Notes under the pieces: generated by a model
Database searches by the model: none
What the model was told of the DNA's origin: nothing
What the model saw: only the letters and a program-made list of their open reading frames with translations
Part shown: positions 2,094 to 54,916 of the stretch, piece by piece
Position numbering within the stretch: the stretch's first letter is position 1
How the letters are laid out: every line of letters starts with the position of its first letter
Translations under genes and position numbers: made by a program
Origin: an uncultured bacterium
GTDB lineage: Bacteria > Patescibacteriota > Saccharimonadia > UBA4664 > SCTI01
NCBI GenBank assembly: GCA_963721685.1
Contig: CAVRJJ010000005.1
Coordinates: forward strand, 231,943 to 295,942
Reading direction: 5' to 3'
Length of the DNA stretch: 64,000 nt

Positions 2094-2627
2094 ATGACAA
2101 CGTTGATTGACTTGCCGCAAAGCGAGGGAGCATCTGCGGCCACACGGGCCGCATCGTGCCTCGCCGAGCTGGCTAGCCGTAAGGGCAGCGATATCGTTCG
2201 CGTGCTGGTGCCCGAGGCGCCCGTGAAGTTCTACTTCTGGCCGGACCAAGGCCGACGGGCTGAACCTAAGTACATCCCGCTGACATGGACACAAGTCAGC
2301 AGGCTGAACGCCGGGGTCTTCACCCTGGTTCACCCGAACACGTTCGACCTGTCGAACGCCAGCAACAAGGATCGGGCAACCGCCGCCTCGTGGGCAAGAC
2401 ACATGCCCTTGAAGGCGCTCAAAGAAGCCGCGCCGCGCCTGAACGACGCGCAGCTCGCATCCTTCATCCGCCTGTTCGCGGCTAACCCGGCCGCCTTCGA
2501 GCACGGCCATGGCCTCCGCGTACAGGGGATCATCGTCGCGTATTTGAGTGTGCAGCGCCTGGAGTGGCTACACGGAGTGCTTCAGGGTGATGCCAAGATC
2601 TATCTGGGCAACATCATTCCGGACTAG
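2094..2627 (+). CDS. hypothetical protein (high-GC patch)
   Basis: 177-aa ORF with protein-like composition, ATG at 2094 preceded by GGAAGG. No recognisable motifs. Confidence 0.45.
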   Translation: MTTLIDLPQSEGASAATRAASCLAELASRKGSDIVRVLVPEAPVKFYFWPDQGRRAEPKYIPLTWTQVSRLNAGVFTLVHPNTFDLSNASNKDRATAASWARHMPLKALKEAAPRLNDAQLASFIRLFAANPAAFEHGHGLRVQGIIVAYLSVQRLEWLHGVLQGDAKIYLGNIIPD

Positions 2628-2771
2628 CACCCACAAGACGACGCGCCTGGGAGGATTCACATCTCCCGGGTGCTGCCCCTAAGCAATAATTTACATGTAT
2701 ATAAAGACTGGTTGGGCCCCCGGAGGGCACCCGCCATGCTGGTGGCACGGCGGGGCCTCGCGGGAGCGGGG

Positions 2772-3254
2772 TCAGGGGAGAACGGGCTTGATGCCGCCGG
2801 TCTTGGGGTCGGTGGGCGACTCCGTTTCGGCAGCGGCACCACCGGTGAGACGCGGTACGTCGATGCACTCCTTGAGCTCGCTAAGCTTGCCGCGCACGAA
2901 GCGGACGTAGAGAATCGTGACGTAGCCGCCACGCTTCAGTCCAACCCAGGTACGCGCGCTGCGCTTGCTGCCCGGCTTCTTGACGCGTTCGTCCTTGAAG
3001 CGGCAGTCGGCCCGAACCGCACCATTCGGCAGGGTGCCGAGCTGCCGCGACATGGTGGTTGTCGAAGACCGGATGAACACATCTGTGCCGGTTGCCTGAA
3101 CCATGACCGGTGTTGCGGCTTGAGCGGTGTAGAGGTAGCCGGCCTTGATCAGCGGTGTCAACACGAGGATGATGAGCACCCAAGCCACGGCAGCGAGGAT
3201 CAGCAGGTCACGTGCTATGACCAGCTTTGACCTATTCCAGAACTTTTCGGACAA
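2772..3254 (-). CDS. hypothetical membrane-anchored protein
   Basis: TTG start at 3254 with GGGGGAGG SD 6 nt upstream. N-terminal TM helix (LLILAAVAWVLIILVL) then a soluble domain. Convergent with 2094-2627. Confidence 0.5.
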   Translation of the reverse strand: MSEKFWNRSKLVIARDLLILAAVAWVLIILVLTPLIKAGYLYTAQAATPVMVQATGTDVFIRSSTTTMSRQLGTLPNGAVRADCRFKDERVKKPGSKRSARTWVGLKRGGYVTILYVRFVRGKLSELKECIDVPRLTGGAAAETESPTDPKTGGIKPVLP

Positions 3255-3396
3255 CAGGGACCTCCCCCTTGGTGTGATTGCCTTATGTCAAACTGAATGT
3301 GCGTCACGTAAGGCAGGCGTAACGACTCTATATCATAGCATAAATTTGTATCTTTTGCAACTGCTATTAGCACAGCAGACTGTTACAATTGTGTTT

Positions 3397-4278
3397 ATGA
3401 ATCTACCGCTAGGCCAGCCCGTTACGTTCTTAAGCACCGACCAGCTGGAGCTTCAGGGATTGTTGTTTGGAAATCCCAAAGCCGCAACCGCCCATATTGT
3501 TATCCACGGGCTTGGCGGCGATGTGTTTTCGCAAATTGAAACAATCGCTCACCTGGCCAGCAACGACGTTCAAGTTTTATTCTTTAACAATCGCGGCCAC
3601 GATACCATTACACGGTTTAAGCGCCTAGATGCATCAGCCCCAAAAGGTTACCAGTCTGAAACGATTGGCGCGGCCCACGAGGTGTTTACCGATTGCGTCC
3701 ACGATATTCAAGGGGCGGTTAATTTTCTGGAAGAACAAGGGGCAGAAACTATCCAACTTACTGGCCACTCCACCGGCTGCCAAAAGACTGTTTATTATTT
3801 AAGCCAGCAGCCAAGTAAAAGTGTTAAAGGCGCCACCCTGCTGTGCACGATAAGCGACTACGCTAGCTTTATAGCTACCGAAGATGAGGCGACCCGCATC
3901 AAGGCAACCGATTTGGCAAAGAAGCTGGTAAAAGAGGGAAGACCGCACGAGCTCCTGCCGCTGGACGTGTGGCCGGAGATGCATGATGCCCAGCGCTTTT
4001 TAAGTTTGTTCACGCCTGAATCAACTGAAGAGATTTTCAGCTACGCCGTGCCGGACAAAGCTCCGGAAATCCTGCAATCAGTTAAAGTCCCTCTAAAAAT
4101 TGTCCTGGCGGAGAAGGATGAATACGCCGACCGCCCGGCGAGTGAAATTGCCGCGTGGTTTAAAAAAATGATGCCCGAAGATCAAATTGAGATAGAAATT
4201 ATTGAAGGCGCCGGACATAATTTGGAGAGGAAAGGCGCGCTGGGGATAATAATGGTCAAGCTTGATGCTAAAAAATGA
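3397..4278 (+). CDS. alpha/beta-fold hydrolase
   Basis: HGLGGD oxyanion region, GHSTGC (GxSxG), and C-terminal DEYAD / GAGHN acid-His blocks. The longer ORF from 3145 overlaps the convergent gene and is unlikely. Confidence 0.65.
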   Translation: MNLPLGQPVTFLSTDQLELQGLLFGNPKAATAHIVIHGLGGDVFSQIETIAHLASNDVQVLFFNNRGHDTITRFKRLDASAPKGYQSETIGAAHEVFTDCVHDIQGAVNFLEEQGAETIQLTGHSTGCQKTVYYLSQQPSKSVKGATLLCTISDYASFIATEDEATRIKATDLAKKLVKEGRPHELLPLDVWPEMHDAQRFLSLFTPESTEEIFSYAVPDKAPEILQSVKVPLKIVLAEKDEYADRPASEIAAWFKKMMPEDQIEIEIIEGAGHNLERKGALGIIMVKLDAKK

Positions 4279-4317
4279 GCTGTTATAATTTTTGTATTAG
4301 TAGTAAGGAGCGGTGAC

Positions 4318-6344
4318 ATGAGCGAATTATTGCATAAGGTGCTTACGGACTTGTCTGCTAGAGAAGATATTTCAATTCAAGCCGTTGTTGCAGGTATTGA
4401 GAAAAGATATTCTCCCTGGTACTAGGCATAGTCGAAATAGCAAAAACTAAAGCCATAAAAAAAGCAGTCCAAGAAGGGCTGCTTTTTTTACAGAGTGCCC
4501 AGAGGGAAGATGGGGGCTTTGACTGTGAAGCAACAACTAATGTATCTAGCTTTTTGAATAGCAGAATTCATAAAACACCTTTTTTTACAGCATTAATTTT
4601 GTCCGCGCTCAATGAGCCGCTAGATACTGATTTGCTTGGAAGCAAGGGAGTGAATTTTTTGCTAAAAAACAGAAGTTCAGTATGGTCGTGGAACTATTGG
4701 GAACGCGATTCGAAAGACTATAGTAGTCGGGCATACCCCGATGACCTAGATGATACATTTTGTGCTTTGGCGGCGGTAATGATTCACAAGCCTCAGAAAA
4801 TTGACGGGGCTGCCCAAGCGGCTCTAGCAAAGATGCTTATTGCAACTGAGAAGCAGCCTAGCGGACCTTATAAAACATGGTTGATAGATGCGAATGCTGG
4901 GTCAGATTGGTTGGATGTAGATATTGCTGTTAATGCCAATATAGGGTTTATGCTTGGAATGCTGGACGTCAAACTCAGAGGCCTAAAGGAATTCATTGAT
5001 GATGCTATAATAAGGAATAAGCTAAGCTCAAGATACTACATAGGCCAAGCTCCTATTATTTACTTTGTCTCTCGAAATTATAAAGGAGCACAAAGTGAGC
5101 TTTTAAAGCAAAAAGTTATAGAGGGGCTATTAAATGGATCTGAAGATTGCATAACTACTGCGATGCTTGTTTCGGCTGGATGTAATTTGAAAATTAATTC
5201 TGCTGAGCTTTCTCGGGCAATTGAAAGAATATTAATTCAGCAAGAACAAGGTATTTGGCCGGCCAATGCTCTTTACTACGAGCCTCCAATTAAAAAAATC
5301 AATTATTATGCTGGATCCAGTAGCCTTACAACAGCGCTCAGTATTGAGGCGTTACGAGCATATACTAAACTTTTATCTCTTAGTGAAAGCAAAGTATCCG
5401 TAATGTTGAGCAAAAACAAATCTTTTGTTCAACAAGCAATTTCGCAAATAGAATTAGCTAACACAGAAGTTATGAAAGAGTACGAAAAGGTTGCTTTTAT
5501 TGTGGCCTCAAAAGATCACGACCGGCAAATAATGAGTATTGCTAATGTCGTATCCGAAGCATTTCATATAGAGCTTGATCCAGCTATTGTTTTCGCGCTT
5601 AATTCCGCAAGTCTCAATGGATGGATTGCTTATTCGATTTACGACGACTTTATTGACGACGAAGGCAGCTCAAAGTTGATGGGTGTAGCAAATGTTGCTC
5701 ATCGATCCATGTTAAACAATTTTATTACAGCAGTGCCAAATGAAAAATTTCAAAAGCTTGTTTCGTCAACACTTAATCGAATGGATGAAGCAAATACTTG
5801 GGAAGCAGTGCGTACTCGCATGAGTCTGGTTAGCGGTAAAGTTAAATGGAAAGACCTGCCCAATTATGAAAATTTATCTCAGTTAGCACAACGTTCATCT
5901 GGCCATGCGCTTGGTGCACTTGGAGTGCTTTTTTTGTCAAGATTTAAAAATGATGAAGATATATTCTATATGCAAAAGTACTTTTATCATTTTCTTATTT
6001 CCCGTCAGTTAAATGATGATGCACATGACTGGTGGGATGATTTATCAAAAGGACATTTTACATCCACTGTAGCTTCGCTGATGAAAAAGTGGGGTAAGAA
6101 TGAAGTAGACCTTGCAAACGACCACGGCCAACTTTCAAATTTATTTTGGAATGAAGAAATCCCTCATACCGTAAGTATTATCAACTATCATGTCGGTAAA
6201 GCCAGAAAATCGCTTGAAGCAATGCCACATATAGTTAACAAAGTAACTTTAGCGGACTGGGTGGATAGACTTGAGTCATCCGGGAAAGCTGCCTTAAAGG
6301 CCAGGGAGGATGCGACGGTATTCATAAGGAGCTTCATGGCTTAA
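4318..6344 (+). CDS. two-domain terpenoid synthase-like protein with an N-terminal frameshift
   Basis: ATG 4318 has a TAAGGAG SD. A -1 shift in an A4 run near 4405 joins it to the 4554-6344 ORF. The N-terminal domain has Q..DGGF and DDLDDT (DxDDT-like). The C-terminal domain has DDFIDDE and NDDAHDWWDD about 123 aa apart, like FARM/SARM of trans-isoprenyl diphosphate synthases. AT-rich, about 38-42% GC. Confidence 0.5.
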
Positions 6345-6612
6345 TTTGTCTGCCTGGACTGAGAGAGCGACCGCTCCTGATCGTTTTTGACGCTCACACA
6401 CATTGTGCGATAAAGTCTCATGGACGAAGGTTGATTCTTGATTTTTATACAATTTTATGTTATCATGTCCTAGCTCTTTAACAGATCGCTACTTGCTTAG
6501 CCGTAGCTTCAGGGTCAGGTATACCCCGGTTCTTAAGCTGCGGCTAGCACAGTGCGGCACATCCAACGGCAGGCTGTAGACTCTGGCAATCCGCCAAAGT
6601 AGGCAGTAGGCC

Positions 6613-7260
6613 ATGACCAAGGAGGGCATCGTGCCCAGCAGCACCCAGATCAGCGGCTTCAACGTCGCCGCCCGCAACTACCAGAAGCTGGTGGAAGCAG
6701 TGATGAATCTCGGCGGTGGCGATGAGGCCATGAACCTCATCTTCAGCGATGCCGAGCTGCGCCACAAGCTGGCGGAGCTCCTCGTGGGTCAGGCTGGCTC
6801 GACCGCCGATCCTGGCACCGTCATCGGCCAGTTGATACTGACCGTCGATTACGGCTTCTCCGTGGAGGACAAGGTCGTGGGTGGCCACTATGACGGCTAC
6901 GTCAACCCTGCCATCACCTCGGTCAACTTCCCGCATCAGCGCGAAGGCGTCGAAAAGGTGACGCTCAGCTTTGTCAAGTTCGCCAGGGCGGGAACCACCG
7001 AAGAGCGTGAGCGTGCGCTGCTCGTGCACGGCGACCCGACCGACATGCATGACATGCTCGCTACCGGGATCAAGTATCCCGACGAGCAGCGGAAGTATCC
7101 GCTGGTCTTCCTCGGCGCTTCGTGGGTCCACCCCGATGGCAGCCGCAGGGTCGGTTGCCTCGGCGGTGACGGTGACGTCCGGGGCTGCTACCTGGATTGG
7201 ACGAGTCCGCAGGACGAGTGGTACCCGGGCTACGTTTTCGCGGTTCGCGCTCGCAAGTAG
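6613..7260 (+). CDS. DGR target (variable) protein, VR at C-terminus
   Basis: 215-aa ORF; its last 142 bp form the VR. High GC, about 62%. C-terminal GASW...RVG... resembles CLec/FGE-type DGR targets. Confidence 0.7.
   Translation: MTKEGIVPSSTQISGFNVAARNYQKLVEAVMNLGGGDEAMNLIFSDAELRHKLAELLVGQAGSTADPGTVIGQLILTVDYGFSVEDKVVGGHYDGYVNPAITSVNFPHQREGVEKVTLSFVKFARAGTTEERERALLVHGDPTDMHDMLATGIKYPDEQRKYPLVFLGASWVHPDGSRRVGCLGGDGDVRGCYLDWTSPQDEWYPGYVFAVRARK
7116..7257 (+). repeat. DGR variable repeat (VR)
   Basis: 142-bp copy of 7618-7759 with no indels. 18 mismatches, all opposite TR adenines. Confidence 0.85.
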
Positions 7261-7275
7261 TGCCCTTCGACTCTG

Positions 7276-7307
7276 GGATCCTTGGGGCTTCATCTCCCCT
7301 TGGATCC
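7276..7307 (+). other. hairpin 16 nt downstream of VR stop (GGATCC-tt-GGGG / 8-nt loop / CCCC-tt-GGATCC)
   Basis: Seen directly. Position matches the VR-flanking hairpin of characterised DGRs. Confidence 0.4.
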
Positions 7308-7617
7308 TTGGGTACGCGGCTTCGTGCCGCTTCTATCGCCTTTGGGTGACGGGAGCGGCTGGAGCCGCTTTCCATGTAATGTTATTATCATTGCGGATAG
7401 TAGATGATTCTGTTGGTGGTTACGGCTGCCAGCGATTGAACTCTAGGCAGCTGGGTAAGACAGAATGTTAGTCAACATAGTTGGCGGCAGAGATCGCCCG
7501 CCCGCTTTATAGTAATACTACTTGGTGCTGGCTATTGGTGGAGTATATCCCAAGTGAAATACAGCCATTTTCGAGTAATCGAAAGGCAGTGGTATAGGTG
7601 ATAGCCGGTACAAGAGA

Positions 7618-7759
7618 GCGCTTCGTGGGTCAACCCCGATGGCAACCGCAAGGTCGGTTACCTCAACAGTGACGGTGACATCCGGAACTGCAACCTGAAT
7701 TGGACGAATCCGCAGAACAAGTGGAACCCGAACTACGTTTTCGCGGTTCGCGCTCGCAA
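7618..7759 (+). repeat. DGR template repeat (TR)
   Basis: Invariant copy. The adenines at mutated positions sit mostly in AAC codons (10 AAC). Confidence 0.85.
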
Positions 7760-7769
7760 GTCTTATTTA

Positions 7770-8151
7770 CTAAGTCTCGTTGTCGGTGGCATGCAATTGC
7801 TTTCGCCACCCGCCGAGCATTTTGCCAACCTCATCAAGCGGTTCGCTGAGGCGTAAGTACTTTTTATTGTCCAACGCCTTAACCTCCCAGGCTATCTGTA
7901 AAAAGAACTTGAGGGCGTCAAGCTTGGTGCTAGCGCGCTGCACTATAGCAGCTTTTTGCGATTTTGGTGCGTAGCCAGCAAGCAAGATGTACTCGATGGT
8001 ATCGGCAAAGAGCGTGTCAATTTTAGCTCCTAATGTGTAGCGCGAAAGACGTGGGAAATCGGCTAAGAAGCGATGCCATAGCTTATAGGCATCGGTGCAT
8101 TTTTGGAGGACTGGTAAATCGGAAAAACTCCGGGGGGGCGCTTACGGGCAT
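7770..8151 (-). CDS. avd: Avd-like accessory variability determinant (four-helix-bundle / 23S rRNA IVS protein family), frameshifted near the start
   Basis: Reads ...FPRLSRYTLGAKIDTLFADTIEYILLAGYA...KFFLQIAWEVKALDNKKYLRLSEPLDEVGKMLGGWRKQL in the minus frame. The ATG at 8151 is out of frame by one C/G in a 7-nt G run (8132-8138). Confidence 0.6.
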
Positions 8152-9157
8152 GAAAACTCTGATCCAATTAGACGTTAACTACGACGATATTATCGCATCC
8201 AGTAACTTACTGCTAGCCTGGCGGGAGTTTAGGGCTGGCAAGCGTGGTAAGACGGACGTGCAAGCGTTTGAGCACCTGTTAATGGATAATCTGTTGTCGC
8301 TCCACGAGAAGCTGAAGCAAGGGGAGTATCATCACCAAGGTTATTATCAGTTTGGGATTTCCGACCCGAAGCCTCGGCAAATCCATAAGGCCAGCGTTCG
8401 CGACCGGGTGCTCAATCATGCCGCTTATCGCGTACTTTATCCCTTTTTTGATAAGACATTTATTTACGATTCATATTCCTGTCGCAAACACAAAGGTACG
8501 CACGCCGCTTTGCAACGATTTGAGCAGTTTGGCCGTCAGGTGAGCCGGAACGATACGCGCACCTGCTGGGTGCTCAAATGTGACATTAGAAAGTTCTTTG
8601 CCACCATTGACCAAGCAATCTTAGTAAGGATTTTGGCGGATTATATCCCCAACCCGGAGGTAATGGCACTGTTAAAGCTGGTTATTGGGAATTTCGAGAC
8701 GATGCCCGGAAAAGGCTTGCCGCTCGGCAACCTAACCTCTCAGTTGTTAGTGAACGTCTACCTTAATCGGTTCGATCAGTTTGTAAAGCACCGGCTTAAA
8801 GCTCGACACTACATTCGTTATGCCGATGACTTCGTACTTCTGTCTACCGACTGTGACTGGCTGTTAGCCCAGATTCCCTTGATTGATGATTTTCTGCGCG
8901 AACACCTGGACTTGCGAATGCACCCACAGAAAACATCGGTGCAGACACTTGCTTCGGGGATCGATTTTTTAGGGTGGGTGCATTATCCCCATCACCGGGT
9001 GGTACGCACGGCTACGAAAAGGCGAGCCTTACGGCAACTGGAACAATCAAGCTCACCTGAAACGCTACAATCGTACTTGGGACTACTCAATCATGGTGAT
9101 GCTTTTAAGGTGCGGCAGGAAATTCGTAATAAGGGGTATTTGTGGCATGAGGATTGA
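8150..9157 (+). CDS. DGR reverse transcriptase
   Basis: YADDFVLL (RT motif 5/C) and LGNLTSQ (DGR-specific replacement of QGxxxSP). 336 aa from ATG 8150; the listed ORF start at 8033 is an upstream extension. Confidence 0.85.
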   Translation: MKTLIQLDVNYDDIIASSNLLLAWREFRAGKRGKTDVQAFEHLLMDNLLSLHEKLKQGEYHHQGYYQFGISDPKPRQIHKASVRDRVLNHAAYRVLYPFFDKTFIYDSYSCRKHKGTHAALQRFEQFGRQVSRNDTRTCWVLKCDIRKFFATIDQAILVRILADYIPNPEVMALLKLVIGNFETMPGKGLPLGNLTSQLLVNVYLNRFDQFVKHRLKARHYIRYADDFVLLSTDCDWLLAQIPLIDDFLREHLDLRMHPQKTSVQTLASGIDFLGWVHYPHHRVVRTATKRRALRQLEQSSSPETLQSYLGLLNHGDAFKVRQEIRNKGYLWHED

Positions 9158-45854: not shown

Positions 45855-46445
45855 ATGACGAAAATACCAGTATCTATCAGTCAGCTTGCAAAATATGGAC
45901 TCGACTACGTCAGTCTGATTTCTAGTAGTGGCTCAAGAAGTAGGCCAGTAAAGACTGACAAGATGGATGCTGAGTTATTGTCAGTGCCTGACTTAGTTTT
46001 CAAAAATGAAGTTGAAGCCATCACGATCGAACTAATTACGTCCCTAGACAGTGAATATGATCCGGATACTCCCGATGAGGATAAAAGCGACGAGCAGCGA
46101 CGAGCAGAAGAACGTGTCACGCGTGACCGCGAAATCTTAAATAAAATTCAAGAAATTGATACCAAAATAAAAACTGATGAGTACACAAAAAGAGTTGTAT
46201 TACAGAGTGGATTTGTATCTTTCGAAGCCAAGCGTTTCCTTGAAGCTGAATACAACGAAGAATATGAAAAATATGAAGGTCCATTATTACAAGTTCCCGT
46301 GGCGGCCATTAACTTCAAGTACAGCGCCGTCGGAGTCAGCGTAGTTATTGACCTGCCTGACAGCTACGTTGAGATATTGAGTGGCCCGTTTAAAAATTAC
46401 TTGCCACAGCAATACTATGACGAGATATTTACTTCCACCCTCTAA
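45855..46445 (+). CDS. hypothetical acidic protein (island gene 1)
   Basis: 196 aa, no SD, no motifs. Confidence 0.4.
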   Translation: MTKIPVSISQLAKYGLDYVSLISSSGSRSRPVKTDKMDAELLSVPDLVFKNEVEAITIELITSLDSEYDPDTPDEDKSDEQRRAEERVTRDREILNKIQEIDTKIKTDEYTKRVVLQSGFVSFEAKRFLEAEYNEEYEKYEGPLLQVPVAAINFKYSAVGVSVVIDLPDSYVEILSGPFKNYLPQQYYDEIFTSTL

Positions 46446-46593
46446 CGCAGAATCTGACCCTTCGTACGATGGCGTAATAGCAGCTACTCGATTCACAGGT
46501 AGTGGTGTTTGAGGATGAGGAAAAGCGTGAATAAGCGGTAATTCTGAGGCCAGGGGTTCGCGAACCGTTTCAGAAAAACTAAAGGAACTCGAC

Positions 46594-49359
46594 GTGCCTT
46601 TCTTGTATGGCTACATACCAGACAAAACCTCGAAACTCTACACTGAAGCCGATGAGAAAGACAGTGCCGCGAATACTCTACTTGCATTGAACCGAGAATT
46701 TCAAAAAGGCAAAGTCGGCGACCTAAAAGAGCCTCTCGAATTGCTAACAGACCGTTTCAATATCTTCACCGATAATCTAGATAATGAGCGCTCAATATAT
46801 TCCCTTTATGAGGAGCGTAGGAGTATAGGCTACATTGAGCTTTTTTATGCGTATGGGGTGGATATCGCATGGTATGACCAGCTAGTGAACCTAGAGCAAT
46901 CAATTAGTGAAGCAGAATCTAAGGTTAATGAATTCGAAAAGAGTCGCGGTAAATTTATTAAAGCCGCTGATTCTAAGTTTAAAGATCTAGAGATAGATTA
47001 TCAGGCCACCATAGATGCTATTGAAGAAATCAACACCTATTTCAAGGCAAACATGCCCGAAAGGTCTGGCTGGATAGGCAGTAAATTAAATGACACTAAG
47101 CTGCGCAATGCGCTAAAGAAATCCTGCCGCAACATACTTCAAGAGATCTACGTAGAAATTGAGAAAATTCTTTTCTCGGATAACACTAAGTCTGCCCGCT
47201 TACAGCTACTTGATAGGGTTGAAGAATACTTTAGCTATTCTAGTGAACTGGAAATGCTGGCACAAAGCCGCTCGGCGCTACAAGAGCTTCTAGGGAGTAA
47301 GGGAATGCCGTCGACGACTTATGTAAATCTGAAAAAAGTCATCGATGAGCATGGCAAAGACAAAGTATTTAAAGATTTAACTAAATACGATGAAATATCC
47401 GATCAGATAAACGAGGTGGCATTATACTCAGCAAATGAGCTGAACCGTGAGATAAAAGATATTCGGAAGTTCTACAGAACTAATACTACAAATTATGTGC
47501 GAAATCGCATCCTAACAAGAATAGGCGAAATAAATAACAGCAAAGACATAAAAGCCACATTAGCTCAGGTTGCCAGAAGCCTCACCAAGAGTAAGAAAGC
47601 AAATAAGACATTTGATAGGCTAAAACATAACGAAGACAACTTTAGCGCAATGTCCAAGGTACTCCCTATTTGGATGATGAGCCTAGATGATGTTAGTCGT
47701 ATTGTGCCGCTACAAATGAACGCATTTGATTATGTAATTATCGATGAGGCGTCACAGTGTAACTTTGCATACGCTTTCCCTGCTATGTTCCGAGCCGAAC
47801 ATACTATTTTCTTCGGCGACACTTTGCAGATGCGGGATGACAACATTATGTTTAAGTCAAATGACCAGCTAAGTGCTATAGCCAAGAAACACAAAATACC
47901 TGATGTGTACCAAATCAAAGCCGAGGAAGATACTGTTAAGTCGGTAATGGATATCGCGCACTTAAATGGCTTCAAAACTACTACTCTCAAATACCATTAC
48001 CGTTCGCCTAAAGAACTTATTGGCTTTTCTAACGAGTCATTCTACGAGCCCATCGGACGTAAGCTGGAAGCCGTCAACGATAATATAGTGCCATTCAAAA
48101 ATACTGGACGCGTCATGATGAATCACTTAGTTAAGCCGAATGACTCAGAAGAAACATCGGATAAAACTAACTTAGCCGAGGTGCAGAAAATTCAGCAGCT
48201 AGTTGATGAGATTAGAGAAGACCCTATATTGAAGGACAAGTCGATTGCTATTCTGACGTTCTTTAATGAACAGGCCGAGCTAATACGAAATACGATTACG
48301 GATGAAGATATCAAGGTAGCAATCATCGACGGCATTCAAGGCGACGAGAAAGACATTGTTATTTATTCCTTTGTGATCAAAGACCCTAGCGATAAGAGGC
48401 GTTACATAAACCGAACTGGCGAAGGCGGTGAAATCAATAAAGACATTGCAGCGGGTCGAGTGAACGTAGCGTTTAGTCGTGCAAAGCTACAAGTTCATTG
48501 TGTAACGTCAATATCGCCAGAACTATGGCCTACGGGCATCTGGATTAAGAAGTATCTGGAATATGTCGAGAAGTATGGAGTTGTATCGCGTCGGCACATT
48601 AAATCTGAGCAACAATTTGATTCTGAATTCGAAAACCACGTTTATACTTACCTTGCCAAGAAGTTAGATGCAAATGATTATACGATTGAAACACAAACTG
48701 AATCACTAGGCTTTAAGATTGACATGACAGTACATCACAGTGGGAGAAAACTCGCCATCGAATGTGATGGTCCGACTCACTTTGAGGGTGGGGACGGTCA
48801 AGTATACGTTCAAAGCGACTGGGAGCGTCAGGGCGCATTAGAGGTTGCTGGTTGGAATTTCTATCGTATTTCGTATTTCGACTGGGTTAACGATCGGTCA
48901 GGAGAAGAAAAAGCTCTGACCGACTTTATAGCGGAATACTTTGACAATGACCACAAGATTGGCAAGACTAATGTTGTTAGAGTGCTAGAGAAAGAAACTG
49001 TAGCTCCTGTAGATGCTCCAGCAGAAATGTACGTCACCGATTTCTCCGATGAGCAGGTAGACAACATAAATGCCGTGCAAGGAACCTCTAAGCCAAAAGT
49101 CGATAAGCCTAAGACCCCAGCTAATAAAGGATTTAGCGTTGGTTCGCGTGAAGTAAACCAAGACGCATTTGGCGAATACTTGCAAGGCCGCATCTCAAAA
49201 TCGATCAACATTCGATATCAATCTACTAGGGCTGGCAGTGCAAAGTTCTGGCGTACGTTATCTCTCGTTGAGTTTGATGGTACGTATTTTTCAGCGTTTG
49301 ACTCGTACGCGGGCATGAACAAGAAGTTTCGTCGAGACCGAGTTGTAGAATTTAAGTAA
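46594..49359 (+). CDS. Upf1/DNA2-like SF1 helicase core lacking Walker A, fused to a DUF559/Vsr-like PD-(D/E)xK endonuclease domain
   Basis: GTG start with AAAGGA SD. Motif II DYVIIDEASQ, III FGDTLQM, IV YRSPKEL, V IDGIQGDEKDIVIYSFV, VI RVNVAFSRAK, then AIECDGPTHF...D. No GxxxxGK[ST] anywhere in the 921 aa. The N-terminal 330 aa is coiled-coil-like. Confidence 0.7.
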   Translation: MPFLYGYIPDKTSKLYTEADEKDSAANTLLALNREFQKGKVGDLKEPLELLTDRFNIFTDNLDNERSIYSLYEERRSIGYIELFYAYGVDIAWYDQLVNLEQSISEAESKVNEFEKSRGKFIKAADSKFKDLEIDYQATIDAIEEINTYFKANMPERSGWIGSKLNDTKLRNALKKSCRNILQEIYVEIEKILFSDNTKSARLQLLDRVEEYFSYSSELEMLAQSRSALQELLGSKGMPSTTYVNLKKVIDEHGKDKVFKDLTKYDEISDQINEVALYSANELNREIKDIRKFYRTNTTNYVRNRILTRIGEINNSKDIKATLAQVARSLTKSKKANKTFDRLKHNEDNFSAMSKVLPIWMMSLDDVSRIVPLQMNAFDYVIIDEASQCNFAYAFPAMFRAEHTIFFGDTLQMRDDNIMFKSNDQLSAIAKKHKIPDVYQIKAEEDTVKSVMDIAHLNGFKTTTLKYHYRSPKELIGFSNESFYEPIGRKLEAVNDNIVPFKNTGRVMMNHLVKPNDSEETSDKTNLAEVQKIQQLVDEIREDPILKDKSIAILTFFNEQAELIRNTITDEDIKVAIIDGIQGDEKDIVIYSFVIKDPSDKRRYINRTGEGGEINKDIAAGRVNVAFSRAKLQVHCVTSISPELWPTGIWIKKYLEYVEKYGVVSRRHIKSEQQFDSEFENHVYTYLAKKLDANDYTIETQTESLGFKIDMTVHHSGRKLAIECDGPTHFEGGDGQVYVQSDWERQGALEVAGWNFYRISYFDWVNDRSGEEKALTDFIAEYFDNDHKIGKTNVVRVLEKETVAPVDAPAEMYVTDFSDEQVDNINAVQGTSKPKVDKPKTPANKGFSVGSREVNQDAFGEYLQGRISKSINIRYQSTRAGSAKFWRTLSLVEFDGTYFSAFDSYAGMNKKFRRDRVVEFK

Positions 49360-49360
49360 A

Positions 49361-50173
49361 TTGATGAAGGCGTTCGACAAACATAGTGACCCAAATCTGA
49401 TAAAACGAGCCTTGGATGCTGGACTATCCTCAACGCCCGGCCTCTCCATTCCCTGGGCATTATGCAAAGCTCTGTATGGTAATGCTTTAGAGTTACGGCA
49501 GCAAAGAGCGCTTGAGTGGGTTGAAATGATTCGCGACAACCCTGTTATTTTTCGCAAAGAATTATTAGAATCTTCAGATTTTCAGGACGGTTTTATAGTA
49601 GCGCTGGAAGAATACTTAAAACTTAGGACGATTTTAAAGCGTGGCTTGGCTCGCAAAATTTTTATTGGCTTTGCCCAAGTTGGAGACAAAGAACAATTTG
49701 AACTCGAACGTTACAATACAACGCTGAGCCAAATATCAGGCAATTCTTTGAAATTCTTAGCGTACATAAAAGAACTAGTCGAACCAAAACGACAAGAGCG
49801 CGTTGCCGAAACTATGGGTAACATCGATTTCAAGACGTCACCTATGCAATCAGACCAGGCCAAAAGCTACATCGAAAAACAAAACCCGCTCTCGTTCGCG
49901 TATAAGGATATTCATGTGGGTTCGGGGACGCAAATTATGCTTCCCAATAAGCCGAGTCCTAGATACCCAGGTATCACAAGCTCTATGGGCATAACCATTC
50001 AAGATAGCGATCGTACAACTCACGAAGAATGTCTTACTGAACTCGTAAGCCTCGGCTTACTCAGCCGTAGCCGATACACTACGCCTGTATCCGATAAGAA
50101 CCCAACAACTGTTTATCATGACATTTGGGACTACACGAACTATGGCAAAGGCTTTGTCGAGTTCATGAAATAA
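49361..50173 (+). CDS. hypothetical protein (island gene 3)
   Basis: 270 aa. Start is 2 nt after the helicase stop. Confidence 0.4.
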   Translation: MMKAFDKHSDPNLIKRALDAGLSSTPGLSIPWALCKALYGNALELRQQRALEWVEMIRDNPVIFRKELLESSDFQDGFIVALEEYLKLRTILKRGLARKIFIGFAQVGDKEQFELERYNTTLSQISGNSLKFLAYIKELVEPKRQERVAETMGNIDFKTSPMQSDQAKSYIEKQNPLSFAYKDIHVGSGTQIMLPNKPSPRYPGITSSMGITIQDSDRTTHEECLTELVSLGLLSRSRYTTPVSDKNPTTVYHDIWDYTNYGKGFVEFMK

Positions 50174-53500: not shown

Positions 53501-54916
53501 ATGTCCAAACGCATCTACGTTATTATTAATCCCTCCTCTGGTACCGGCGATCCGGCCAATGTAGTGCCTGGGATTGAAGCCCAATTAAAGCAGCGGTCAC
53601 TTGAATACACGATAAAAATTGCCCAGACTCCCAGCCAAGCCAAAGCGGCCGCGAGTAAAGTGGCTTTAGCAAAATATGACGCGATAGCGGTTTACGGCGG
53701 CGATGGTACGGTTATCGCGATTTTTAAAGCTGTTTACCAAGCAAAGATCCCCGTGCTTATTTTACCGGGCGGATCGGCTAATGTTTTGGCAAAAGCCCTG
53801 AATCTTCCGCCTGATGTCGGCAAGTGTCTTGATCTTTTTGTGGAGGACTTGTATCTTCTGCGGCGGTTTGGGGTGGCCTTAGCAAACGATGAGCCTTTTA
53901 TCCTTGACCTGCATTTTGGGGTGTGGGCCGAAAGTATCCAATCGACCAGCTCCCGCTTAAAGCAGGCGTTTGGCCAGCTAGCTTACGGCTTGGCCGCTAT
54001 AAAGCAGTTAGGGTCGGCGGCTAAGTATGCCTACCAACTACAATTAGATGGTAAAAAGCTGAAGGTCGACGCTTACGCCTGTATAGTCGCCAACGAAGGA
54101 TTCCATAATATTTTAGGAGTACCGCTTTTCCCGTACCCCCATACGCCGGGGTTCTTGCAGGTGGCGGCGGTTAAGCGCGTCAACCAATTTGTATTTTTAC
54201 GCTGGTTCATTTTGCGTTGCCTGGGCCGTCAAGACTCTGGGGTGGTTGAGGCGTGGCGGGTTAAAGAAGCGGTAATTGAGGACGCGCCACAACAAATGTT
54301 GTTTGATGATGAGGCGCTAAACGCCAAACTGCCGTTTACTATCCAAGCCTCGAATTACACCATAGCCGCCATCGCGGCGCCGTTAACTGCCAGCTCATTT
54401 TGGCGCCGATTGCGGCTGCAGGCAGCGGTTGAGCCTTACCGCATTTATGACCACTTGCGCCGCGTAGTTACGGGAGGGCCCGCGCTTAAAAGCACACAGA
54501 TCGCCCTCAATTTATATGTTGGTGGCCAATACCGCCCGTGGGCGGTAGGCAGGCTGCGCAAGTGGGGGATTACCGGGGTGGTAAATATGCGCAATCTGCG
54601 CCACCCTTCCTATTCCCGGGGCCTTGAAGTATTAAATTTACCAACCCGGGACCATCATCCCCCTAGCCTTGAGGCACTGCACAAAGGAGTGGTATTTATT
54701 CAGCAACACATCCAAAATGGTGGAGCGGTGTATGTGCACTGCCAGCTTGGCGAAGGCCGGGGGCCCATTATGGCAGCGGCGTATCTGGTAAGCCAGGGTA
54801 TGCGTCCGCGCGACGCGGTGGCGCACATTGAACGTTTCCGCCGATTGGTACGCCCAAATGCTAAGCAACTGCATCAGTTGGCCCGGTTTGAGGAAGAGTT
54901 AAAGGAAATGCCATGA
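53501..54916 (+). CDS. fusion protein: DAGK-like lipid kinase catalytic domain plus dual-specificity (CX5R) phosphatase domain
   Basis: N-terminal IINPSSGTG...YGGDGT. C-terminal VHCQLGEGRGP (HCx5R P-loop). Confidence 0.65.
   Translation: MSKRIYVIINPSSGTGDPANVVPGIEAQLKQRSLEYTIKIAQTPSQAKAAASKVALAKYDAIAVYGGDGTVIAIFKAVYQAKIPVLILPGGSANVLAKALNLPPDVGKCLDLFVEDLYLLRRFGVALANDEPFILDLHFGVWAESIQSTSSRLKQAFGQLAYGLAAIKQLGSAAKYAYQLQLDGKKLKVDAYACIVANEGFHNILGVPLFPYPHTPGFLQVAAVKRVNQFVFLRWFILRCLGRQDSGVVEAWRVKEAVIEDAPQQMLFDDEALNAKLPFTIQASNYTIAAIAAPLTASSFWRRLRLQAAVEPYRIYDHLRRVVTGGPALKSTQIALNLYVGGQYRPWAVGRLRKWGITGVVNMRNLRHPSYSRGLEVLNLPTRDHHPPSLEALHKGVVFIQQHIQNGGAVYVHCQLGEGRGPIMAAAYLVSQGMRPRDAVAHIERFRRLVRPNAKQLHQLARFEEELKEMP

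Follow-up and report, generated by a model that had tools for sequence, protein, structure and literature searches.

Class I terpene synthases are described with an alpha, an alpha-beta or an alpha-beta-gamma architecture, and class II enzymes with a beta, a beta-gamma or an alpha-beta-gamma one (PMC12232559, PMC11469919); the bacterial class II/I fusions on record are five gamma-beta-alpha proteins (PMC11469919), and the class II cyclases built on a beta domain only comprise MstE together with the HAD-TCbeta enzymes (PMC12365925, PMC12324236). A fusion of an active beta domain with an alpha domain resembling prenyl synthases is not among these listed architectures (PMC12232559, PMC11469919), and in this respect an earlier note on the present DNA, which had called such an arrangement non-standard, was right. 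Here we examine the gene behind that remark, at positions 4318–6344 of a 64,000-nucleotide stretch of contig CAVRJJ010000005.1 (the window), which comes from an uncultured member of the Saccharimonadia. Our reading, to which we give a probability of roughly 0.55 on the basis of sequence comparison and structural models, is that the gene belongs to a family of ~640-aa beta-alpha didomain terpenoid synthases, probably bifunctional and acting on farnesyl diphosphate (FPP) or geranylgeranyl diphosphate (GGPP), and that the copy in the window was acquired and is likely compromised.

Profile and model both show the N-terminal half of the protein to be a class II beta domain that lacks gamma and carries a canonical DxDD(T) motif (residue numbers throughout are those of the 647-codon frame 4401–6344). 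When a profile of 35 family members, among which the homologues are only 32–41% identical to the window protein, was compared with the sequences of the PDB, it matched the beta domain of the drimenol synthase AsDMS at E 4e-16, a match limited to TCbeta (profile positions 41–310 against AsDMS chain residues 264–523). In this alignment the PDDLDDT of the family lies on the PDDLDTT of AsDMS, and D117 falls on the catalytic general acid of that enzyme, D323 in 9mhs numbering (PMC12232559; PMC12365925); the chain of the D-to-N AsDMS mutant, 9m7d, reads PDDLNTT at the aligned position. An AlphaFold2 (AF2) model of the full-length protein (mean predicted local distance difference test, pLDDT, 92.2; predicted TM-score, pTM, 0.82) gave the same picture in Foldseek, where the N-terminal domain matched AsDMS best (E 7e-11), then 8pak, 8paj and 6sbg (MstE) at 1e-8 to 1e-6, and after these monodomain cyclases the beta-gamma cyclases such as SHC and SsDMS. 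The motifs from which the earlier note had read a class II cyclase-type barrel lie where it placed them, QREDGGF at 4500–4520 and DDLDDT at 4740–4757 (D115-L-D117-D118-T119), and the barrel itself is borne out by these profile and model matches.

With its (alpha/alpha)6 barrel and DxDD motif this domain agrees with the class II cyclases of the AsDMS/MstE beta-domain type, but it does not place the protein in the other class II groups compared. It forms one barrel of ~330 aa, draws no Pfam hit (PF13243 or PF13249) and scores 17.8 bits against TIGR01507, for which the cut-off is 431, and is thus not a beta-gamma enzyme of the squalene-hopene or oxidosqualene cyclase (SHC/OSC) type; it is not a gamma-beta-alpha protein, having no gamma domain and a single barrel that matches 345-aa monodomain cyclases (TM-score normalized to the target, TMt, 0.66); and the part of the protein outside the beta domain, which in HAD-TCbeta enzymes is a phosphatase, is an alpha domain of the isoprenyl diphosphate synthase (IPPS) type.

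Modelled alone, this C-terminal domain (pLDDT 93.9) has the all-helical fold of the trans-IPPS: the best 50 PDB hits of a Foldseek search are all trans-IPPS (E 1e-5 to 3e-4; TM-score normalized to the query, TMq, 0.58–0.73), among them hexa-, hepta- and solanesyl-diphosphate synthases, FPPS and GGPPS, with no class I cyclase among those 50. Profile–profile alignment by hhalign against the IPPS family encoded beside many homologues (see below) covered 264 columns and placed YDDFLD on the first aspartate-rich motif of that family (FARM) and RQLNDDAHD on the second (SARM); the usable alignment is one made in local mode with a low mact setting, global mode having given only a meaningless alignment of 38 columns. 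The earlier note had proposed two Asp-rich motifs at FARM/SARM spacing, and D415 and D539 are indeed 124 residues apart. Its reading of the C-terminal half would have been undermined by motifs lying outside an isoprenoid-synthase fold, but each is found where a long helix ends on its C-terminal side, the first on helix 59–83 and the second on helix 183–207 of the C-domain model, on helices equivalent to those that carry FARM and SARM in trans-IPPS.

Both Mg2+-binding DDxxD motifs are thus retained in this domain; gone are the basic residues through which chain-elongating synthases bind isopentenyl diphosphate (IPP) and diphosphate. In the same profile–profile alignment the IPPS signatures GK..R, RRG after FARM and KT are replaced in the family by D..QI..LP, EG.P and R-S.GH, and PF00348 finds the window protein not even at E <= 1 and only one of the 35 members, at E 0.019. 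Because the residues of the IPP site are replaced and PF00348 gives no score, we take the C-terminal domain to be derived from an IPPS but not to be a standard chain-elongating synthase. Of the motifs that mark class I cyclases, the DDxxD is present; the second motif, D539-D-A-H-D543-W-x-x-D547, has neither the S/T nor the E that (N,D)Dxx(S,T)xxxE calls for, but the i, i+4, i+8 spacing of D539, D543 and D547 resembles the metal-binding NSE/DTE triad of class I cyclases. Weak class I Pfam matches occur for PF19086 in three of the 35 members (best E 0.0074) and for PF03936 in one (E 0.093). The DxxxDxxxG(R/H) following the second motif resembles the second motif of squalene and phytoene synthases (SQS/PSY). 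A C-terminal domain of that kind is not favoured, with no SQS_PSY Pfam match in the 35 members and none among the best 50 structures.

The 35-sequence alignment has invariant motifs in both domains. The invariant blocks are P113-D-D-L-D117-D-T119 in the beta domain and Y411..D415-D-x-x-D419-x-E-G and Q536-x-x-D539-D540-x-H542-D543-x-x-x-D547 in the alpha domain (D415 and D419 are strictly invariant, D416, E421 and G422 at least 90% conserved), and they are accompanied by a set of invariant aromatic residues, F40, F61, Y99, Y157, W160, W170, Y213, Y221, F222, W408, Y411, W467 and W583.

The family is large. Searching a collection clustered at 90% identity, in which only the 8,000 best word-sharing candidates were scored, matched 387 proteins at E <= 1e-3, and an exhaustive HMMER scan with a limit of E <= 1e-30 returned 1,468 clusters (50% identity), of which the best 150 are 573–698 aa long, and all except two cover essentially the whole profile. 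Relatives occur in 301 GTDB species representatives. Record titles name mostly Patescibacteria—Saccharibacteria/Saccharimonadales, Microgenomates (Levyi-, Davies-, Roizman- and Shapirobacteria), lineages of Parcubacteria, and Doudnabacteria—while a minority of the labels on metagenome-assembled genomes (MAGs), themselves unverified, name other phyla. Where the sources give a name it is always "hypothetical protein", save for one generic "terpene cyclase/mutase family protein", and we found nothing in the searchable literature that links Patescibacteria, the candidate phyla radiation (CPR) or Saccharibacteria to a terpene cyclase. Five homologues (P0012, P0024, P0027, P0028 and P0065) carry a precomputed hit to PF28380, which was absent when P0012 and P0024 were scanned against our local copy of Pfam and for which a literature search found nothing relevant; the entry may have been given to this family recently.

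The genomic surroundings of the homologues, obtained by calling open reading frames (ORFs) and clustering their products in 79 non-redundant loci, reveal a recurrent unit that consists of a response regulator, a kinase and the beta-alpha protein, with an IPPS added in some loci. In 62 loci the gene immediately upstream, in the same orientation, encodes a multi-transmembrane histidine kinase of ~465 aa with a HATPase_c domain, whose N-terminus comprises about six hydrophobic segments joined by short loops; the modal gap between the two genes is -4 nt. Counted from the beta-alpha gene, an OmpR-type regulator stands at -2 in 51 loci and at -3 in a further seven. Of the 79 loci, 23 hold a genuine polyprenyl synthase (PF00348, E 1.6e-51), which in 18 cases directly follows the beta-alpha gene in the same orientation, ten times with a gap of -4 nt; this synthase scores highest against short-chain NCBIfam models of the FPP/GGPP type, all below their cut-offs. 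Through this unit the family is linked both to prenyl diphosphates and to a sensor embedded in the membrane.

Two of the loci deserve mention. One from Doudnabacteria (L003, identical to L028; contig_17402, 2337–6831) has, within 5 kb of the beta-alpha gene, an RVT_1 reverse transcriptase gene with a bAvd accessory gene and two phage-integrase genes; like the window it lacks the upstream kinase and has a diversity-generating retroelement (DGR) nearby. In the other (L004, identical to L024; 80–5329), which also contains a Caroten_synth (PF04240) gene, an HD-domain gene and two OmpR-type regulators, the polyprenyl synthase stands between regulator and kinase, not downstream of the beta-alpha gene.

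The copy in the window differs from its relatives in the state of its reading frame. Canonical ORF calling over 4318–6344, a span of 2027 nt that is not divisible by three, returns only 4554..6344 (+ strand, TTG start, 596 aa), and the source genome annotation records a product of just 521 aa (P0001). The protein of about 676 aa described in the earlier note corresponds to no single ORF of that length; a frameshift had been read through, the frame of ATG 4318 ending at 4423–4425. The conserved frame opens after a TGA at 4398–4400 and contains no ATG, GTG or TTG before TTG 4554, yet over 4401–6344 it scores 697 bits (E 7e-211) against the family hidden Markov model (HMM). That ATG 4318 was the original start codon is argued by the Shine-Dalgarno sequence ahead of it (Table 1), and the promoter-like site further upstream is the top-scoring one on the + strand within 4100–6700. 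One additional base anywhere in 4401–4422, 28 codons past this ATG, would join the two frames into a protein of 675 aa, the simplest repair being a fifth A in the A4 run at 4402–4405.

The same break, a 35-aa ORF and a 581-aa ORF offset by 282 nt as in the window, is found in the independent Logan assembly of run ERR12037361; the frameshift is therefore not peculiar to one assembler, although both assemblies could still derive from common reads. Programmed frameshifting is unlikely: around 4401–4422 there is neither a slippery heptamer of the X XXY YYZ form nor a lengthy run of A, slippage on the AAA/AGA codons would mispair, and transcriptional slippage would need more than a 4-nt A run. Nothing supports reinitiation at an ATA or CTG codon downstream of the 35-codon ORF, although it is conceivable. 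A further break of this kind lies upstream, where the gene of an S9/dienelactone-hydrolase (DLH)-type alpha/beta hydrolase (962–1992) is split into ORFs 962–1480 and 1477–1992 by a one-base-deletion-type frameshift at ~1405–1412, between ...IKPDY and RGHGQSEG...; it is the second such event within 3.5 kb of the terpene-cyclase-like gene, and is a sign of gene decay in this region or else of an assembly prone to indels.

The alternative that fares best concerns this copy and not the family: the frameshift would stem from an error of sequencing or assembly, and the window would carry an intact 675-aa gene with its own promoter, Shine-Dalgarno sequence and ATG 4318. The full set of expression signals upstream of that ATG, the retention of every family-invariant residue across the downstream 647 codons, the possibility of placing the repair inside a homopolymer and the similarly broken hydrolase 3 kb upstream, which suggests an indel-prone assembly, all speak for an error, while the recurrence of the split at identical spacing in the Logan assembly (possibly from the same reads), the annotated product of only 521 aa and the shortness of an A4 run for a homopolymer error speak against it. 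We treat an artefact as a tentative possibility that deserves to be kept in view, and consider that the window copy is probably horizontally acquired and either inactivated or N-terminally compromised.

Evidence for acquisition comes from base composition and from the neighbourhood. The G+C content (GC) of 4318–6344 is 39.5%, against 51.0% in the rest of the window, and no other 2-kb stretch within the 64 kb is as low; the difference between gene and flanks is -11.5 points, as compared with +1.2 +/- 2.5 in 75 homologous loci, where the minimum is -3.8. Searched in all six frames with HMMs built from the regulator, kinase and synthase clusters, the window gave no match. The nearest non-self relative of the window protein is 41% identical, whereas the LepA of this host shares 93% identity with another protein so named, and the host, a member of the Saccharimonadia, has ordinary chromosomal genes in the window, such as those for ATP synthase, FtsH, TilS, PurB and PurM. 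Together, the GC anomaly, the ordinary host genes, the disparity between relatives and the missing partners support the acquisition of a single gene from a lineage of lower GC. On this point, too, the earlier note holds: it had described an AT-rich island, suggestive of acquisition, between hydrolase genes and a DGR, and the gene indeed stands between GDSL, S9/DLH and DUF1749 hydrolase genes upstream and a DGR downstream. Overall, all four of its interpretive claims are supported, and of its observations the motifs, their spacing, the GC deficit and the neighbours stand, while the continuous ORF does not.

The DGR is complete (6613–9157). Its variable repeat (VR, 7115–7258) forms the 3' end of a 215-aa ORF (6613–7260) that has no Pfam hit, the template repeat (TR, 7618–7761) is 88% identical to the VR with 18 of 18 mismatches at TR adenines, and the reverse transcriptase gene (RT; RVT_1) occupies 8033–9157. 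Elsewhere in the window, a second low-GC stretch (46001–50000, 41–43% GC) that may be another acquired island holds a 921-aa ORF (46594–49359) with AAA_12 helicase and MTES_1575 restriction-endonuclease-like domains, and a 471-aa ORF at 53501–54916 joins DAGK_cat/YegS diacylglycerol-kinase-like and DSPc dual-specificity phosphatase domains in an unusual combination of lipid kinase and phosphatase.

Table 1. Features of the beta-alpha gene and its upstream region, in window coordinates
Feature	Position	Strand	Basis or remark
Promoter-like site, TTGATG-16 nt-TATAAT, TG preceding the -10 hexamer	4262..4289	+	10/12 matches; consensus match only
Shine-Dalgarno sequence AAGGAG	4305..4310	+	Read in the sequence; ends 7 nt before ATG 4318
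5' gene fragment, 35 codons, MSELLHKVLTDLSAREDISIQAVVAGIEKRYSPWY, and TAG 4423-4425	4318..4425	+	One frame off the main ORF
Frameshift interval	4401..4422	+	Bounded by opening of the frame at 4401 and closing of the ATG 4318 frame at 4423
Main conserved reading frame, 647 codons and TAA 6342-6344	4401..6344	+	First canonical in-frame start TTG 4554
N-terminal domain, predicted single alpha/alpha-barrel class II terpene-cyclase beta domain, residues 1-330	4401..5390	+	Profile and Foldseek
QW-like motif FLQSAQREDGGF ([FYW][LIV]xxxQxxxGx[W/F])	4485..4520	+	Q34 and G38 at least 90% conserved; F40 invariant
PDDLDDT, DxDD(T) class II general-acid motif, D117 the middle Asp	4737..4757	+	Invariant in 35/35 sequences
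Inter-domain linker, residues 331-335	5391..5405	+	Sole segment of the model with pLDDT <50
C-terminal domain, predicted all-helical trans-prenyl-diphosphate-synthase-like alpha fold, residues 336-647	5406..6341	+	Structure search and hhalign
First Asp-rich motif YDDFIDDEG, FARM-like (D415-D416-x-x-D419)	5640..5666	+	Aligned to IPPS HDDIiD
Second Asp-rich motif QLNDDAHDWWDD, QxxDDxxD (SARM-like)	6006..6041	+	Aligned to IPPS FQixDD

For the family as a whole, a plausible sequence of events can be outlined. FPP or GGPP would be supplied by the adjacent synthase or by a synthase of the cell's own; in the beta domain D117 would protonate the terminal double bond and the chain would cyclize, as in AsDMS; and in the alpha domain the Asp-Mg2+ cluster would bind the diphosphate and then, in class I-type chemistry, ionize or remove it, or else anchor the head group during cyclization. 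With anchoring, the alpha domain would take over the capping and Mg2+-binding role that gamma plays in beta-gamma cyclases. A cyclic terpenoid would result, made under the control of a membrane-embedded kinase.

The alpha domain could instead elongate the chain and thereby make the substrate for the beta domain, as in the known prenyltransferase-terpene cyclase (PT-TC) enzymes but with a class II cyclase. That all the nearest structures of the domain are trans-IPPS fits such a fusion, as does the combination of both DDxxD motifs with a Q three residues before the second (QxxDD), which is typical of IPPS; but the elongation signatures have given way to other invariant residues, PF00348 is nearly silent across the family, and in many loci a separate PF00348 synthase is translationally coupled just downstream, and we think a chain-elongating role unlikely. 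We judge similarly improbable that the protein is a regulatory accessory, a cytoplasmic partner binding isoprenoid lipids or prenyl diphosphates and tuning an intramembrane-type kinase, in the manner of a third component such as LiaF or those of the LpqB type. The kinase directly upstream, usually with a 4-nt overlap, and its hydrophobic, short-looped N-terminus agree with an accessory role, and other isoprenoid genes are not near in most loci; residues that are catalytic elsewhere (the middle Asp of DxDD and the two DDxxD) are, however, invariant, a polyprenyl synthase is co-operonic in 23 loci, and the window copy has stayed open for 647 codons without a kinase in 64 kb. Least probable is a generic, non-terpenoid alpha/alpha toroid (macroglobulin TED-like, LanC-like or protein-prenyltransferase-like) that serves in binding and whose Asp motifs are coincidental, for although TED_complement is the commonest weak Pfam match (13 of 35 members, best E 3.8e-8) and LANC_like and Prenyltrans occur among such matches too, class II cyclases, their catalytic motif in register, head the matches in both sequence and structure, the motifs are invariant over sequences only 32–41% identical to the window protein, the C-terminal domain has an isoprenoid-synthase fold and a polyprenyl synthase recurs as a neighbour.

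Several observations weigh against a bifunctional beta-alpha terpenoid synthase. The phosphate-binding R368 and R370 of AsDMS align to W170 and D172 of the family, so that recognition of the head group must differ from that in AsDMS. Pfam finds nothing in the repaired 675-aa protein even at E <= 1—an outcome which, taken literally, the earlier note would have counted as refuting it, although the homology it proposed is there at the level of profile and structure—and the best NCBIfam match is the far sub-threshold squalene-hopene cyclase score given above, confined to residues 36–126 of that protein. For the C-terminal domain, the hhalign probability is only 76% in a single pairwise comparison, and with a DDxxD in place of a canonical NSE/DTE motif class I cyclase chemistry is putative. 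The adjacent synthase is found in just 29% of loci, and the tight coupling to the kinase would also fit a regulatory role. Finally, the frameshift may be a read or assembly error, as the second one in the hydrolase gene hints, in which case the window copy would be intact and not compromised.

We rate the family as a new domain combination within terpene-synthase-like enzymes, predicted from sequence and model, in an unexpected clade and operon. Terpene-synthase architectures have been treated as a closed set, to which the HAD-TCbeta drimenol synthases, with structures from 2025, were seen as a striking exception; the present family would add the combination of a catalytically equipped beta domain with an alpha domain derived from a prenyl synthase, and at about 1,470 clusters and 301 GTDB species, and found almost exclusively in the CPR, it is not rare. 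With its near-obligate coupling to a membrane-embedded histidine kinase and a response regulator, it makes a link of isoprenoid chemistry to envelope sensing directly testable where metabolism is minimal. For the genome of the window the biological weight is smaller, the copy being an orphan in an island of foreign composition with a frameshift near its start. Patescibacteria are regarded as unable to synthesize their own membrane lipids. A bolder proposal, which we offer as speculation with low odds, is that the operon is a two-component-controlled system in which a bifunctional synthase, joining beta to an IPPS-derived alpha, makes a cyclic sesqui- or diterpenoid serving as a hopanoid-like membrane homeostat under an intramembrane-sensing kinase. 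Were this so, bacteria would have arrived independently, by this fusion, at the beta-alpha layout known from plant terpene synthases.

How the family stands to known enzymes can be summarized domain by domain. Closest in sequence is the HAD-TCbeta enzyme AsDMS of Aquimarina spongiae (9mhs, 9m7d), which shares the gamma-less class II beta domain, the PDDLD(D/T)T motif with the general-acid Asp aligned, and the fusion of beta to a second, diphosphate-handling domain; in AsDMS, however, that partner is an N-terminal HAD phosphatase, whereas in the family it is a C-terminal IPPS-like alpha domain, the two phosphate-binding arginines are replaced, identity over the structural alignment is ~20%, and the host is a marine member of the Bacteroidota where the family belongs to Patescibacteria. 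MstE (6sbg) and the chains 8pak and 8paj, deposited as squalene-hopene cyclases, have the same single (alpha/alpha)6 beta barrel of ~330–350 aa without gamma, and match at the Foldseek values given above (TMt about 0.66), but stand alone where the family protein carries a fused alpha domain. MstE moreover has a DxD motif and a meroterpenoid substrate without diphosphate (PMC12324236), whereas the family has the canonical DxDD.

The C-terminal domain invites a different set of comparisons. With the trans-IPPS (PF00348; HexPPS 3aqb, FPPS 1rqi, HepPPS 5h9d) it shares the alpha fold (with TMq reaching 0.73), a pair of DDxxD motifs ~124 residues apart on equivalent helix ends and the Q three residues before the second; it differs in lacking GK..R, RRG, KT and a PF00348 score, in a shorter loop after SARM and in invariant residues of its own (R435, W467-E468, S499-x-G501-H502, H542 and W583). 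The gamma-beta-alpha diterpene cyclase-synthases (DCSs)—plant CPS-KS, abietadiene synthase and the bacterial DCSs—resemble the family in having beta followed by alpha, DxDD in beta and an Asp-rich metal motif in alpha, and in the proposed order of a class II step and then diphosphate chemistry; the family, by contrast, has no gamma domain, an alpha domain nearest to IPPS and not to class I cyclases, a DDxxD and not an NSE/DTE as second motif, and no above-threshold Pfam terpene-synthase hit. The plant beta-alpha class I terpene synthases, to which we detect no sequence relationship, have the same layout, beta N-terminal and alpha C-terminal, at a similar total size, but their beta domain is silent and without DxDD and their alpha domain is canonical class I, whereas the family keeps the DxDD in beta and has joined it to an alpha domain of the IPPS type.

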